Of a DNA stretch of 60,281 nt, positions 5,970 through 60,001 are shown in pieces. Position 1 is the stretch's first letter. The number at the start of each line of letters is the position of its first letter. The notes under the pieces were generated by a model. It saw nothing but the letters and a program-made list of their open reading frames with translations. It made no database searches and had not been told where the DNA came from. This DNA is from an uncultured Alphaproteobacteria bacterium. GTDB taxonomy: Bacteria > Pseudomonadota > Alphaproteobacteria > Rickettsiales > UBA1997. Both the position numbers and the translations under genes were made by a program. The stretch is taken from the NCBI GenBank assembly GCA_903937405.1, contig CAIZZE010000072.1, positions 1 through 60,281 on the forward strand, in the 5' to 3' direction.

Positions 5970-6068
5970 GATTTTTTAAGCTGATTAGATTTTTAAAAAG
6001 AGCGCGGCAAATTAAAGTGAATGAGCTAAATTGCTACTGTTGGAATTGGAAATCTTTCTTTGTAATTA

Positions 6069-7022
6069 TTATCTAATCTCAACAAACGCTTTCTTGCGAA
6101 TATCCATCAAATTTCCTTTGGCTAAGGTTTGTAATTTCCTGCTAAAAATAGCATTGCGCGCGGCATTTAAATCCTGATCGGCGATTTTGGTTTCGGTTTT
6201 GGTATCAAACAATTTAAAAATATGAAAACCATCGGAAAGTGCAACCGGATCTGAATAGCCATCTTTTTTTAATTTGGAAATCGCATTATAAATTTTTGGC
6301 TCAATATCAGATTGCGAAACCCAGCCGATTTCACCATTATTTTCGGCATTTATTCCATTAGAAAATTGCTTTACCAAATTTTTGAAATCCGCTCCCTGCC
6401 TAAGCTCAATTACCAATTTTGCTGCAAATTGCTCCGCATTTTGCGCTGATTTTCCGGTTGGAGAAATCAAGATTTCAGCAACGTAAAATTTTTTGACATC
6501 AGTATTAAATTTATGCTGTTCAAAAAATTCTCTCACCTCAACTTCGGTAACTTTTACTCGGGATCGCAAAGTTTCAGAAATAATTTTTGACCATAAAATT
6601 TCGGCTTCAATCTGCTTCAAATAATGATCGAATGAAAAACCATTATTGATAAAGAAAATTTTAAACTGGGTTGGATTTTTCTTTTGCTGTAAAGCCACCA
6701 TTTCCACAGCATCAGCCACTTCTTCAGGAGTTGCTTCAATTTTTAAAGTTGCCGCTTCCTGCCTGATTAATTCTTCATCAACCATTTTATCGAGAATTTG
6801 GTTGAGCAATAATTTCTGGTCGTCAATTGATTGAATCGAGATTTTGGCAGAAGTTACAACATAGCGATAGCGATCAATTAGTTCAGAATTTGTAATCGCT
6901 TTATTATTGATTTTAGCAGTAATGAAATCACCGCTATTGGCAGGAATATTTAGTTTTAATTGAGCTGCGAATGAAGAAAGATTTGTCCAAAAAAGAAGAA
7001 TCAGAAAAATCAGTTTTTTCAT
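6069..7022 (-). CDS. SurA-like periplasmic chaperone / parvulin-type peptidyl-prolyl isomerase
   Basis: Signal peptide (MKKLIFLILLFWTNLSSFA), a SurA-N-like region, and a C-terminal rotamase domain (GEIGWVSQSDIEPKIY...GFHIFKL). Confidence 0.7.
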   Translation of the reverse strand: MKKLIFLILLFWTNLSSFAAQLKLNIPANSGDFITAKINNKAITNSELIDRYRYVVTSAKISIQSIDDQKLLLNQILDKMVDEELIRQEAATLKIEATPEEVADAVEMVALQQKKNPTQFKIFFINNGFSFDHYLKQIEAEILWSKIISETLRSRVKVTEVEVREFFEQHKFNTDVKKFYVAEILISPTGKSAQNAEQFAAKLVIELRQGADFKNLVKQFSNGINAENNGEIGWVSQSDIEPKIYNAISKLKKDGYSDPVALSDGFHIFKLFDTKTETKIADQDLNAARNAIFSRKLQTLAKGNLMDIRKKAFVEIR

Positions 7023-13987: not shown

Positions 13988-14010
13988 GGACTGGGTTACA
14001 AACCCAGTCC
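13988..14010. terminator. GC-rich perfect hairpin (10-bp stem, 3-nt loop) between convergent genes
   Basis: GGACTGGGTT-aca-AACCCAGTCC. No clear T-tract, so it may be a REP-like stabiliser rather than a classical terminator. Confidence 0.45.
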
Positions 14011-18781: not shown

Positions 18782-19356
18782 ATGAGCATAAGTAAGGAGA
18801 AGATTCTTGAAGCTATCCGTAAAACTGCACAAGAAAATAGTGGGAGACCTTTGGGTGAAGTAAAGTTTCAAAAAGAAGCTGGATTTGAGCCTAATCAATT
18901 TCAAGTCCCTTATTCAGATGAGTTTATTAGTGAAAAAATTATAGGACTTATACGAAAACTTAAAAAGTTTCCCACTACCAGAGAGAGAATAGTGGAAAGA
19001 AATATCGACAGCGATTTTCCAAGTCACGGAACTTTTAGAAGATTAAGAACCCAGGAAAAAATTGCGACGATGATATTGTAGAAATATGTAAAACAGTTCT
19101 TAAGGAAGGGTTAACAGCAGTTGATAATCCTGTGCTTGTTGGCGACATTGGCGAAGTTTATCTTTTTAAATCTGGTCGTTACTACAAAATCGGAAAAACA
19201 AAAGATACTGTAAGGCGTGGTAGCGAGATCAGAATTCAGCTACCAGAAAAGTTAGATTTGATCCATTCAATAATGACAGATGATCCAAGTGGTATTGAGG
19301 CATATTGGCATAAACGCTTCGCATTGAACAGAATGCAATGTAAAAGCCCTCTTTGA
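18782..19356 (+). pseudogene. Frameshifted and 3'-truncated T5orf172 / GIY-YIG-superfamily (MUG113-like) gene
   Basis: The N-terminal part (KILEAIRKTAQENSGRPLGEVKFQKEAG) stops at 19081. The second frame is open from 19039 and carries YLFKSGRYYKIGKTKDTVRRGSEIRIQLPEKLDLIHSIMTDDPSGIEAYWHKRFA. It ends abruptly where a palindromic element begins. Confidence 0.7.
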
Positions 19357-19472
19357 AAAAGAGGGTGGATCAAACGCCTTTGGCGTTTGAGACGGGTGAT
19401 TTAAAAATGCTAAATGTTTTATGGAGTAAAAATCCTCCGGCGCTGCGCGCCACCTCCTTTTTCAAAGGAGGC
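19346..19472. repeat. MITE-like element with ~23-bp terminal inverted repeats, each itself a hairpin
   Basis: Left end is GCCCTCTTTGAAAAAGAGGGTGG. The reverse complement of the right end is GCCTCCTTTGAAAAAGGAGGTGG. Internal hairpin: CAAACGCCtttgGCGTTTG. Confidence 0.6.
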
Positions 19473-19519
19473 TTTGCTACTTCTAACATCTTTAACAAAT
19501 TAAGTGTTTATCTTTGTTT

Positions 19520-46794: not shown

Positions 46795-46802
46795 CCTTTA
46801 TT

Positions 46803-46878
46803 AGATCCTGAAACAAGTTCAGGATGACGATGTGAGAAGACCTACTAAATCTGTCATCCTGAACTCGTTTCAGGATCT
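46803..46878. repeat. Complete 76-bp palindromic (MITE/RPE-like) element
   Basis: 26-nt arms AGATCCTGAAACAAGTTCAGGATGAC and GTCATCCTGAACTCGTTTCAGGATCT (1 mismatch), separated by a 24-nt spacer. Each arm is itself a hairpin (ATCCTGAA/TTCAGGAT). Confidence 0.75.
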
Positions 46879-46904
46879 AGCGTGAATAATAATTCAAAAA
46901 CATT

Positions 46905-57406: not shown

Positions 57407-58111
57407 TTATTTGGGAGAAGCTTTGTTAGCAAGCAGGTTTTTCAAAGAAATTACTTCGATTTTACTGAAATTTTCAATTGTTTGGTTTGGCGATAAAGAC
57501 GGCGGCAATTGAGTTGGCAAATCTTCATTGATGATGATTTTTTCGATTGCCACATTTCTTGATTTTAAAGCTGTAACTGCGCAAAGAGTGTGGCTGATTG
57601 AACCCAGATAATTAGCGCTTACGAGCAAGGTTGGAATTTTTAAATCTGCCGCTAAATCAAGAAAAGTTTTTTCGTCATTGATTGGTGTCATTACGCCGCC
57701 AGCAGCTTCAATAAAAAGAAATTGGTTATTAGTTTTAGCGAGAGCAATTTTTTCTTGGCAGAAATTTTTTACATCAAAAAAGTTGATTTCTGTGCCAGAA
57801 ATTTTAGCAGCAAAATGTGGGGAAACAGCTTCAGTAAAGCGCCAAGGACCAATTGAATTAAGAATAGATCCCAAAACAAGTTCAGGATGATAGATCTTTA
57901 CTTCATCGTCATCCTGAACTTGTTTTGGGATCTGTTTTGTGGAATTCAAAAGTCTTATTGAATCACTATTTTCATCATCATCTTTAAACCCGCTTGCAAT
58001 AGGTTTTATCGCCATCGCGCCCGGAAAATTGCGGCATAAATTTTCAACTAAAAAAGTTTTTCCAATATCGGTTCCAATTCCAACAATGAAATAAATTTTC
58101 TCTTTTAGCAT
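57407..58111 (-). CDS. bioD: Dethiobiotin synthase carrying an in-frame palindromic-element insertion
   Basis: P-loop (GIGTDIGKT), SPHFAAK, and EAAGGVMTPI. The extra peptide KQIPKQVQDDDEVKIYHPELVLGSIL is encoded by the repeat at 57866-57933. Confidence 0.82.
   Translation of the reverse strand: MLKEKIYFIVGIGTDIGKTFLVENLCRNFPGAMAIKPIASGFKDDDENSDSIRLLNSTKQIPKQVQDDDEVKIYHPELVLGSILNSIGPWRFTEAVSPHFAAKISGTEINFFDVKNFCQEKIALAKTNNQFLFIEAAGGVMTPINDEKTFLDLAADLKIPTLLVSANYLGSISHTLCAVTALKSRNVAIEKIIINEDLPTQLPPSLSPNQTIENFSKIEVISLKNLLANKASPK
57866..57933. repeat. Palindromic element of the 46803-type family, located inside the bioD coding sequence
   Basis: Arms AGATCCCAAAACAAGTTCAGGATGA and GTCATCCTGAACTTGTTTTGGGATCT with a 17-nt spacer. 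No stop codon in the bioD frame. Confidence 0.75.
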
Positions 58112-59307
58112 TATTTAAGTTTGGAGAAAGAGCCATAAATCGGGCCGAATACCGCGATTGTAATCCAAGCAATCATGCCACCCATCACAATTGTCAAAGC
58201 TGGCTGAATCATGCCCACCAATTTGTCGATTGAGTCATTAATTTCGCGGTCATAGAAAAACTTAATATTTTGTAGCGCCGTTTCCATATTACCACTTTCC
58301 TCGCCGATTTTAAACATCCGAATTACAAGGTTTGGAAAATATCCAGTAAGCGCAATTGCTTTCGCCAAAGATTGACCATCAGTAACTTGCTGTTTCACCA
58401 CAATAATACTTTTTTTCATCGCCTTGTTTTTGATCACTGAACTTGAAGCTTCAAGACATTCAATAACGCCCAGACCACTTTTGAAAGTCATAGCAAAAAA
58501 CTGACAGAATTTTGCCGCGTCAATTTTACTGATGATTGGACCAATAATCGGGAGTTTTAATTTTAAATCGTCAATTTTAACCGCCATCTCCGGATTTTTT
58601 GCCAAAAGTTTCATTAAAATTATAATGAGCGGAACCGAGAAAATTATGAGATACCAGTTATTTTTAACGAAGTCGGAAAAGCCAATCAAAGCTACAGTCA
58701 TAATTGGCAAGGTCAGTCCTTGAGCTATAATGAATCCAGTAACTTTCGGCACTACAACCGTAGTCATGATTCCAAGCACGATACACATCATAAAAATACC
58801 AAAAAGCGGTCCAGTTGTGGCTTTTTTGGTTTTACGCTTGATATCCATGTTCCACTTCAAATCTTCGATGATACTGCCAAATGACGTGGCAAGGTTACCT
58901 GTTTTTTCACCCATGCTGATCAAACCAACGTGGATTGGGTTAAAAACATCGGGGTGTTTGCTTAAACTTTCTGAAAAAAGACTTCCGTTTTTGATCGCTT
59001 CATAAATTTCTGCCATCAGGTTTTTAATTCTTTCTGAATCTGCGGTTTCTTTAAGATCATTAATGGAATCGATAATTGAAACACCTGCTCTTTCCAGCTG
59101 CTCGAGGTGAATGAAAACCGCGATTAAATCTCGCGTTTTAATCTTGTTAAAAAAACCGTAAGTTTTTTGTTTTTCTTCCTTGAATGATACAAGTTCTAAA
59201 CCAGTTGAACGTAGAATTGTCGCCAGATCAGAAGGATTTTCTGCCGACATTCTGCCACTTACATATCTGCCATTTTCGTTGATTACTTTATATCGGAAAT
59301 GCTTCAT
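58111..59307 (-). CDS. Type II secretion / type IV pilus platform protein (GspF/PilC family)
   Basis: 398 aa with two T2SSF repeats and three TM segments. TAATG overlaps at both ends (def upstream, bioD downstream). Confidence 0.82.
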   Translation of the reverse strand: MKHFRYKVINENGRYVSGRMSAENPSDLATILRSTGLELVSFKEEKQKTYGFFNKIKTRDLIAVFIHLEQLERAGVSIIDSINDLKETADSERIKNLMAEIYEAIKNGSLFSESLSKHPDVFNPIHVGLISMGEKTGNLATSFGSIIEDLKWNMDIKRKTKKATTGPLFGIFMMCIVLGIMTTVVVPKVTGFIIAQGLTLPIMTVALIGFSDFVKNNWYLIIFSVPLIIILMKLLAKNPEMAVKIDDLKLKLPIIGPIISKIDAAKFCQFFAMTFKSGLGVIECLEASSSVIKNKAMKKSIIVVKQQVTDGQSLAKAIALTGYFPNLVIRMFKIGEESGNMETALQNIKFFYDREINDSIDKLVGMIQPALTIVMGGMIAWITIAVFGPIYGSFSKLK

Positions 59308-59867
59308 TATTTTTTCTGCAATTTTTTCATTTTATTCAAAATCACGTCACGTTTTAATTTTGAAATGTGATCGACAAAAGTAATTCCATTCAAATGGTCG
59401 ATTTCGTGCTGAATACATGTTGCAAGTAAACCATCCATTTCTTCAACACATTCTTTACCATTTTCATCAAGATATTTTACTTTAACAATTTCGGGACGAA
59501 TAACTTCCGATCTCATATCAGGAAATGAAAGGCAACCTTCATTGTAAGAATGATTTTCTTTAGAAATTTCAACGATTTCCGGATTGATGAAAAAACGCGG
59601 GTTAGTGTTTGAAACATGAACTCCACCACAACCATGGTGATCGTGATGATGGTGATCGTGATCATCAACTTCATAATCAACATCAATCACCAAAATTCTT
59701 TTTAACATTCCAACTTGCACCGCCGCAAGACCAACGCCACTTGCTGAATACATTGTGGTTACCATGTTATTCATAAATTGGCGAAGAGCGTCATCAATTG
59801 TTTCAACTGGTTTGGAAACTTTTTTTAAGATTGGATCTGGTGCTAAAATGATTGGTAGAACTTTCAT
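59307..59867 (-). CDS. def: Peptide deformylase with His/Asp-rich insertion
   Basis: GVGLAAVQVG, EGCLSFP and HEIDHLNG motifs. Carries the extra segment DYEVDDHDHHHHDHHGCGGVHVSNTN. Confidence 0.9.
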   Translation of the reverse strand: MKVLPIILAPDPILKKVSKPVETIDDALRQFMNNMVTTMYSASGVGLAAVQVGMLKRILVIDVDYEVDDHDHHHHDHHGCGGVHVSNTNPRFFINPEIVEISKENHSYNEGCLSFPDMRSEVIRPEIVKVKYLDENGKECVEEMDGLLATCIQHEIDHLNGITFVDHISKLKRDVILNKMKKLQKK

Positions 59868-59900: not shown

Positions 59901-60001
59901 GAAGTCCGACTGGACCCCGTCGTGAAGACGGGGTGACAAACTTTTCTTGCCGAATTTAAAGTTGTCAACCCGTCTTCACGACGGAGTCCAGTCGGGCTTT
60001 C
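59901..60001. repeat. Long GC-rich inverted repeat (arms of about 39 nt, 22-nt spacer), MITE-like
   Basis: Left arm: GAAGTCCGACTGGACCCCGTCGTGAAGACGGGGTGACAA. Reverse complement of right arm: GAAAGCCCGACTGGACTCCGTCGTGAAGACGGGTTGACAA. Each arm holds a CCCGTC-gtgaa-GACGGG hairpin. Confidence 0.75.

Follow-up and report, generated by a model that had tools for sequence, protein, structure and literature searches.

A REP-like palindromic repeat read in frame within bioD of an uncultured freshwater alphaproteobacterium

The DNA analysed here, called the window below, is the whole 60,281-nucleotide stretch of contig CAIZZE010000072.1 from an uncultured alphaproteobacterium. It encodes BioD, dethiobiotin synthase, in a gene whose start overlaps the stop of an upstream gene for a protein resembling type II secretion system component F (T2SSF). 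The predicted product scores 93.9 bits against TIGR00347 (cutoff 83.3), and BioD structures in the PDB also match it. Within bioD lies a 68-bp palindromic element, here named E1, and a second copy of the element is found elsewhere in the window, between two genes. We suggest that the palindrome in bioD is very probably a decaying copy of a small, non-autonomous dimer of the CGTC-tagged type of repetitive extragenic palindromes (REPs), fixed in frame and tolerated in a BioD that appears functional.

The preliminary description of this DNA, made from the sequence alone, reported that the arms of the element inside bioD are like those of an intergenic element at 46803-46878. This was confirmed with a pattern of the arm that allowed at most three mismatches: it matched four times in the window, at the two bioD arms and the two arms at 46803-46878, compared with 0.00 matches expected from 100 shuffles. 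The intergenic sibling begins 8 nt past the stop of a mechanosensitive-channel gene and lies upstream of a glycosyltransferase gene. The reading of the element through bioD without a stop, also described earlier, holds as well. The open reading frame (ORF) of 234 amino acids (aa) is intact, and the frame used is the only stop-free one.

A repeat finder delimits the bioD copy as an inverted repeat with 28-nt arms and 96% complementarity. Over the 26-nt arms, 25 of 26 positions pair, and the T that replaces C at the end of one arm is due to a deletion of 12 nt from the spacer; at the deletion junction the G of the tag of the second arm is gone. As a single strand the element can fold into a hairpin of 25 bp, with a predicted energy of -47 kcal/mol as RNA (z = -8.8) and -27.8 kcal/mol as DNA (z = -11.2). 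Neither copy in the window has a T-rich tail or was flagged as an intrinsic terminator. A search of the whole window against Rfam gave no family at gathering score, and near E1 only sub-threshold matches to generic hairpins (miRNA precursors).

The relatives of this BioD found by protein search are uneven in length (212, 228, 234, 238-243, 270, 302 and 334 aa), and all of the variation falls at one spot. DNA was retrieved for 14 orthologous loci, each of which has its genes in the order def-T2SSF-bioD-argB. A metagenome scan for BioD relatives gave 11 loci, and allele DNA was then collected protein by protein; individual loci and alleles are referred to as L001 and so on. The clade's 212-aa orthologue, together with relatives of 205-215 aa, served as reference for the insert. 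This orthologue, L001, reads ...ACA AGA CAG ATC CTG AAT TCA ATT AGT... (TRQ|ILNSIS, within ILNSISPWRF) with nothing in between. It is syntenic, and its T2SSF and argB genes are 91.6% identical to those of the window and 89.6-91.6% identical to those of all relatives. The 238-aa alleles L003, L004 and L021 read ...CAG ATCCTGAAAC...GGATCT ATT CTT AAT TCA..., where the stretch from ATCCTGAAAC to GGATCT adds 78 nt (26 aa). In the window the insert is of the same type but lacks 12 nt of its spacer, CAGAAGATCTGT (window compared with L021 and L003), deleted in frame, which leaves a net gain of 66 nt or 22 aa; a peptide spanning the insert junction is, for example, IYHPELVLGSILNSIGPWR.

The alignment with orthologues that had been proposed to define the boundaries thus places the insert of the window at residues I61 to S82. 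The earlier estimate of about 26 added residues fits the close relatives; for the window it has to be lowered to 22, the K, Q, I and L at the two ends of the peptide given earlier being native. Distant BioD homologues of about 60% identity (205-243 aa, mostly 205-229) lack the segment. E. coli BioD, to which a short segment at this position had been ascribed, proved a poor comparator. It has its own longer segment there, and the HMMER alignment shows a short gap only. Judged from these alignments, the bioD segment is an insertion of the palindromic repeat.

L001 was considered as a clean empty site and rejected as such. It keeps the terminal octamer of E1, ATCCTGAA, at the place where the filled alleles have ATTCTTAA and the distant homologues have AATCT(C/T)GA, which is nearer to the filled alleles. 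Because of this retained octamer, L001 is most simply explained as a deletion product, and more likely arose by deletion between the imperfect direct repeats ATCCTGAA and ATTCTTAA. This is the only direct repeat at the bioD element, and half of it is the end of E1 itself.

Table 1. Features of the bioD locus and of the E1 copies in the window
Feature	Position	Strand	Remarks
bioD (dethiobiotin synthase), 234 aa	57407..58111	-	Identified by TIGR00347, PDB BioD matches, synteny and structural model
Palindromic element E1, 68 bp	57866..57933	.	Head-to-head dimer of a CGTC/TGTC-tagged REP-like hairpin unit, spacer shortened
E1 arm, first in bioD direction, AGATCCCAAAACAAGTTCAGGATGAC	57908..57933	-	Codes (Q)IPKQVQDD; TG>CA compared with family consensus; plus strand GTCATCCTGAACTTGTTTTGGGATCT
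E1 spacer, 16 nt, GATGAAGTAAAGATCT in bioD direction	57892..57907	-	28 nt in closest relatives
E1 arm, second in bioD direction, aTCATCCTGAACTTGTTTTGGGATCT	57866..57891	-	Codes YHPELVLGS; CA>TG compensates the first-arm change; plus strand AGATCCCAAAACAAGTTCAGGATGAt, also given as AGATCCCAAAACAAGTTCAGGATGAT
Extra 22-aa segment, codons 61-82 (I61-S82, IPKQVQDDDEVKIYHPELVLGS)	57866..57931	-	66 nt compared with orthologue L001
Native flank ATTCTTAA (Ile-Leu-Asn)	57858..57865	-	Imperfect direct repeat with E1 terminus ATCCTGAA; L001 has ATCCTGAA there
Intergenic sibling E1	46802..46879	.	27-nt arms, 24-nt spacer

The bioD element belongs to a dispersed palindromic repeat and is close to its consensus. 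A pattern scan with the two inner arm halves as query, covering one genome per species, gave at least 95 stretches, and the family statistics given here rest on the matches listed. Among these we catalogued 133 E1 dimers with nearly invariant arms. In brief, the aligned units (n = 248) form a 26-nt hairpin module, YGTC-ATCCTGAA-CTTGT-TTCAGGAT-CT(A), with a YGTC tag, an 8-bp stem (ATCCTGAA/TTCAGGAT), a 5-nt CTTGT loop and a CT(A) tail. YGTC is the tag of 228 units (TGTC in 135, CGTC in 93), positions 1-2 of the tag having been left free by the search pattern. In all 133 dimers the tags face the spacer, so that the units stand head-to-head. A full E1 is 78-80 bp long, with two units tag-to-tag across a spacer of about 28 nt, and can form one long hairpin. 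Dimer lengths peak at 77-80 bp, with further classes at 63-66, 86 and 98 bp. The spacers form genome-specific classes that occur in both orientations; that of the bioD copy is similar to other family spacers, such as those of L118 and L056. One unit of the bioD copy has the tag CGTC and the other, after the 12-nt deletion, TATC, and 6 of 8 stem pairs remain in each. The flanks of E1 copies often lengthen the inverted repeat (gaat...attc).

Most of the matches come from freshwater Rickettsiales-type or alphaproteobacterial metagenome-assembled genomes (MAGs), such as the high-copy RE-14apr17-14 (CANGQE01), where the flanking inverted repeats are longer, RIFCSPLOWO2_01_FULL_40_26, ZE05-15may19-8 and an Erken bin, and several such MAGs hold dozens of copies. 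A few matches lie in MAGs labelled Armatimonadetes (a closed chromosome), Saccharibacteria, Treponema, Dehalococcoidia, Rikenellaceae and Arenicella. The 26-nt unit is nearly identical in distant-phylum MAGs (L030, L040, L094, which is the closed Armatimonadetes chromosome OY970325.1, L076, L061, L064, L051 and L032). These copies have spacers of 8-12 nt and unique flanks that extend the inverted repeat, as if they had been inserted into a pre-existing palindrome. A collection of viral contigs, searched for a possible phage vector, contained no E1 dimer.

Each arm contains TGA in two of its three frames. On either strand, the sole open reading is ILKQVQDD...HPELVSGS, with VILNLFQD as the alternative for the second arm. 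About 17 of about 110 dimers outside bioD lie within long ORFs, always in the one open frame; this fraction (about 15% of the copies examined), like the copy densities, is indicative only, since the stretches were chosen for containing E1 and are therefore a biased sample. The repeat occurs in frame in at least 16 other genes of related MAGs. For ten coding copies, Pfam domains of the host protein flank or span the insert: PriA, PabB, FadD-like, CcmF, RibD, AddA, ComEC (two copies), TilS, PepP (aminopeptidase P) and MiaB-like. These in-frame copies, together with the absence of the segment from L001 and the distant BioDs, bear out the earlier proposal of a coding insertion like those of the Rickettsia palindromic elements (RPEs). 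Peptides of the type ILKQVQDD...HPELVSGS in otherwise conserved enzymes should be annotated as derived from a repeat and not as functional motifs. A related observation concerns the glycosyltransferase gene, called as 389 aa in L003 (13343-14512) and 364 aa in L004 (9687-10781). The call in L003 runs into the intergenic E1, and illustrates how such repeats make spurious or alternative N-terminal extensions.

The copies have changed since insertion. In the window and in L021, TG>CA in one arm is matched by CA>TG in the partner (arm positions 7-8), giving IPK...VLG in place of ILK...VSG. L009 carries compensated changes at arm positions 8 and 11 plus three uncompensated ones, and L022 two uncompensated changes. 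If arm changes were independent, the compensated ones would be expected by chance with p of about 7e-4 and 4e-3. The compensated changes in the window keep the long duplex between the arms and break the small unit hairpins. Template switching in quasi-palindromes is an established mechanism that can yield compensation without selection, and we infer that arm-to-arm template switching explains the changes better than selection on the unit. Unrelated copies share one dinucleotide variant, in one arm or in both (CCTGAAAC>CCCAAAAC and/or GTTTCAGG>GTTTTGGG): it is seen in bioD of the window (57866-57933) and in L048 (5594-5681), L037 (6298-6383) and L104 (6507-6586). This could reflect a mutational hot spot or a subfamily.

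Further alleles carry an in-frame tandem array in bioD with a unit of 96 nt, in two copies in L012 (4877-5070), three in P0002 and four in L008 (3201-3586). The unit takes in a portion of the E1 spacer together with the right arm and 39 nt from bioD, and it duplicates the SPWR(F/S)TEA strand. The tandem-array alleles come from short-read metagenome assemblies; the copies within an array differ slightly (F/S, I/V, H/Y), which argues against simple mis-assembly. The intergenic sibling is variable as well. It is present in L003, L004 and L010, reduced to about 13 nt of the right arm in L005 and L006, and rearranged and partly duplicated in L012 and L014.

Other alleles have a different element, E2, in the same bioD loop (L005, L006, L007, L013, L023 and L024). 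It consists of GTCACCCTGAGCTTGTCGAAGGGTGA, a 19-nt spacer and the complement, and encodes NVTLSLSKGD...SPFERLRVTS. L007 and L024 have E2 in full, L023 has it with 12 nt fewer, and L005, L006 and L013 have one arm only. Dimers of the E2 type were found elsewhere as well (L050 4425-4496, L088 3919-3991, L104 7806-7877). The E2 unit has GTCAYSCTGARCTTGT in common with E1, but its tags point outward, and its stem contains a tandem G·A mismatch. Relative to the ancestral ...ISLKNLDDISPW, E2 lies between L and K, and E1 one codon downstream. The insert peptides of E1 and E2 gave no match in NCBIfam and Pfam at E values up to 10. These libraries include a model of the RPE1 domain.

Since E1 and E2 are both close to the consensus of their own families, neither can have diverged into the other in place. 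L003, with E1, and L007, with E2, are 98-100% identical through T2SSF, bioD and argB, except in roughly 180 nt surrounding the insert, a patch where identity drops to 30-80% and some of the differences, in SPWRF, are synonymous. Judged by the flanking genes (about 91% identity), L001 stands as the outgroup, although its flanks are of the E1 type. From these two observations the site appears to behave as an allelic cassette shuffled by recombination. A 34-nt variant of the E1 spacer, found in L009 and L022, shares the 10-mer TTTAGACTCG with the E2 spacer of L024 at the same locus. Chance could account for this, or it may stem from recombination between E1 and E2 alleles.

The presence at one site of E1 with tags inward and E2 with tags outward, one codon apart, along with 96-nt arrays of two to four copies and remnants, raises the question whether the bioD loop is a true hot spot of insertion and replacement and not just the place of one tolerated accident. 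We regard a hot spot as a tentative and rather doubtful reading. Were it true that hairpin repeats prefer to enter or overwrite hairpins and seed recombination and slippage, this would be a general source of hypervariable surface loops in housekeeping enzymes. It would also settle the question of hot spot versus common origin for the Rickettsia elements RPE-4, -6 and -7 (PMC3767692).

The preliminary description left it open whether bioD is functional or an incipient pseudogene. If the insertion had crippled BioD, the gene would be drifting to loss, with biotin obtainable from outside. The insert does lie near the substrate-binding SPH motif, the region is unstable among relatives (deletions, arrays duplicating SPWR(F/S)TEA, a second element), and there are no other bio genes among the 10 annotated ORFs of the window. 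The ratio of nonsynonymous to synonymous substitution rates (dN/dS) outside the variable patch is nevertheless 0.08-0.18 between insert-bearing alleles and 0.08-0.24 over all pairs, none of the alleles examined has a broken ORF, and every indel has a length divisible by three. Because of the low dN/dS and the in-frame nature of the indels, a functional bioD is favoured. Among the BioD relatives, the P-loop and the motifs KP(I/V)xSG, SPH and EAAGG show little or no variation. An AlphaFold model, the means suggested earlier for placing the insert on the structure, predicts the BioD fold with confidence: the mean predicted local distance difference test score (pLDDT) is 81.5 and the predicted template modelling score (pTM) 0.82, and the only residues with pLDDT under 50 are 61-67, 69-81 and those at the C-terminus. 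Superposition of the model on crystal structures of BioD gives template modelling (TM) scores of 0.69-0.77, and the insert is modelled as a disordered loop between the helix at 50-59 and the strand at 87-91 (ISPWRF). We therefore consider an incipient pseudogene improbable.

Another reading is a domesticated element, in which the hairpin or the peptide is under selection, for instance as a site for RNase III or RNA stability that uncouples bioD-argB from def-T2SSF, or as a regulatory or interaction loop. The compensated changes preserve a perfect long duplex although the unit hairpins are broken, the RNA hairpin is very stable, and REPs have often been argued to act as RNA elements (PMC3733652). 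However, E1 is dispensable, as L001 lacks it and other alleles have a different element, half an element or shorter spacers. Some arm changes in L009 and L022 are uncompensated, the compensation may come from template switching, the peptide is predicted to be disordered, and a terminator-like tail is absent, all of which makes domestication quite improbable. That the segment is an ancestral loop of BioD, or a product of metagenome mis-assembly, is more improbable by far. The low copy number in the window and the short-read origin of the array alleles would fit such an account; against it, L001 and all homologues of about 60% identity do not have the segment, the near-consensus repeat occurs in many independent assemblies (NCBI, JGI, ENA, Logan), and the element shows ordinary sequence divergence among alleles.

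Several observations nonetheless weigh against a tolerated REP-type insertion. The window itself holds only two copies of E1, and the fraction of coding copies comes from the biased sample mentioned above. We did not find a clean pre-insertion site among the compared alleles, and as the sole segment-free allele carries the E1 octamer, the boundaries of the insertion are ambiguous. No target-site duplication was detected in 42 E1 copies of one MAG, where the flanks are inverted and not direct repeats. Instead of CCA, the tail has CT with a following A (160 of 248 units) or G (57 of 248). A search of about 100 E1-bearing stretches (about 950 kb) gave no RAYT-like ORF (RAYT, REP-associated tyrosine transposase) or other transposase; the probes were E. 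coli RAYT, IS608 TnpA and the RAYT of L001. As for the enzyme, only 4 residues separate the start of the insert from the ISPWRF strand, and about 15 from the SPH motif, so that an effect on catalysis is possible, and the 25-bp duplex in bioD mRNA could hinder expression.

Taking these points together with the evidence above, we retain the reading of a REP-type dimer tolerated in bioD and envisage its history as follows. Given the open frame ILKQVQDD...HPELVSGS, only insertions with a spacer length of 0 or 1 modulo 3 would leave a gene open. Such a copy would have landed in the bioD loop between helix 50-59 and the ISPWRF strand, and would be translated as a disordered surface loop of 22-26 aa while the enzyme stays under purifying selection. 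Later events are in-frame deletions, substitutions copied from arm to arm, tandem amplification of 96 nt in some relatives and, most likely, loss of the element between short direct repeats. The copying between arms may have occurred by hairpin-templated strand switching. Least certain of all is the original insertion, which might have been a process dependent on single-strand hairpins and served in trans.

Among known repeats, E1 is closest to the CGTC-tagged REPs. These have a CGTC tag, often TGTC, an 8-9-bp stem starting with A/T pairs, a loop of 4-5 nt and mostly a CCA tail. They occur mostly as head-to-head dimers, mainly in Alphaproteobacteria, their intragenic dimers code for 20-30 aa, and they have no dedicated transposase (PMC3733652). 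Four families of them, CGTC-1 to CGTC-4, are distinguished there. E1 likewise has an unpaired CGTC/TGTC tag, an 8-bp stem that begins with A-T followed by T-A, a 5-nt loop and facing tags. It too occurs mainly in Alphaproteobacteria, in many copies of which a minority are genic, with no dedicated transposase known. It differs in its CT(A) tail, and goes beyond them in showing population-level polymorphism at one site. The stem and loop sequence of E1 is not found in the text or supplements of PMC3733652, and a string search for its DNA and peptides gave no match in the searchable literature.

The RPEs comprise the groups RPE-1 to RPE-10 (Ogata et al. 2000, as summarised in PMC10969869), and RPE-4 and RPE-6 of R. 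conorii have been assigned to the CGTC-tagged REP superfamily (Di Nocera, De Gregorio & Rocco 2013, PMC3733652). E1 resembles the RPEs in lying in frame in unrelated housekeeping genes, with a predicted surface position in BioD, and in leaving the gene intact. The motif ATGAC/GTCAT is typical of RPE-4, -6 and -7; for these, orthologues with different groups at nearly the same site have posed the puzzle of a hot spot as against a common origin (Matsutani et al. 2013, PMC3767692). E1 shares ATGAC/GTCAT with them, at its inner arm ends, and E1 and E2 similarly occupy nearly the same site in orthologues. Unlike the RPEs, E1 has as its host an uncultured freshwater alphaproteobacterium (MAG labels 'Pseudomonadota' and 'Rickettsiales') and not Rickettsia, and its core measures 78-80 bp compared with about 100-150 bp for RPEs. 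The earlier view that the repeat family differs from the RPEs thus needs qualification: it is a different family but not a wholly unrelated one, as its unit fits the REP superfamily that holds RPE-4 and RPE-6 and carries the ATGAC signature. Compared by description, E1 finds its most fitting place as a new sequence family of the CGTC-tagged REP or RPE-4/RPE-6-like kind.

REPINs, pairs of REPs mobilised by RAYT transposases (Bertels & Rainey 2011, PMC3116915; PMC3337134), are similar to E1 in having two inverted units and a spacer that fold as one hairpin, in reaching many copies per genome and in decaying to singlets and remnants. E1 differs in its YGTC tag, which is not GTAG, in that no RAYT flanked by the same repeat was found in the E1-bearing stretches, and in its in-frame genic copies, whereas REPINs are defined as extragenic. 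The MITEs of bacteria (miniature inverted-repeat transposable elements), such as the Correia and ERIC elements (reviewed in PMC10969869), share with E1 that they are small, non-autonomous and dispersed, have terminal inverted repeats and occasionally form in-frame fusions with host ORFs. For E1, in contrast, we detected no target-site duplication and saw no matching transposase or parent insertion sequence, and its inverted repeats are themselves hairpin units.

The clade does contain one RAYT (NF047646, 85.7 bits, cutoff 80). L001 has an intact copy (6198-6692) some 3.3 kb upstream of bioD, L006 a truncated one, and L003, L004 and L010 have fragments; the equivalent position would be just past the end of the window. 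In L001 both sides of the gene (at about 6060-6110 and 6700-6770) bear another, GTAG-like hairpin, GGACGGGGTTTGTAACCCCGTCC, a copy of which is also found in the window (GGACTGGGTTTGTAACCCAGTCC, 13988-14010) with a compensated stem change relative to the L001 copies. This RAYT was considered as the mobiliser of E1 and rejected because it belongs with the GTAG-like repeat.

In-frame palindromic repeats are a known phenomenon, and the bioD case adds a new example of it. It suggests that Rickettsia-style repeats within essential genes also operate in uncultured freshwater alphaproteobacteria. The chief added interest is the population-level series. Among the relatives, one site is found segment-free, with the full element, with a shortened or amplified one, and with a second element in its place, an unusually complete natural series. 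It can serve the study of how such elements enter, persist in and leave proteins, and it bears on the question whether RPE types that lie close together in orthologues go back to hot spots or to divergence.

Other repeats and variable segments were noted in the window. Between def and purN, at 59902-59999, lies a head-to-head dimer of TGTC-ACCCCGTC-TTCAC-GACGGGGT-CCA units with a 22-nt spacer; it is a textbook CGTC-type REP with a CCA tail, of another family than E1. At 19343-19475, inverted 26-nt arms stand 81 nt apart, each of them a small hairpin (CCCTCTT-TGAAA-AAGAGGG), and this pair may be a further repeat family or a pair of terminators. The def gene (59307-59867) encodes a His-rich segment, DDHDHHHHDHHGCGG, between conserved blocks of peptide deformylase, and its product is 183 aa long in L005 and L006 compared with 186 aa elsewhere.

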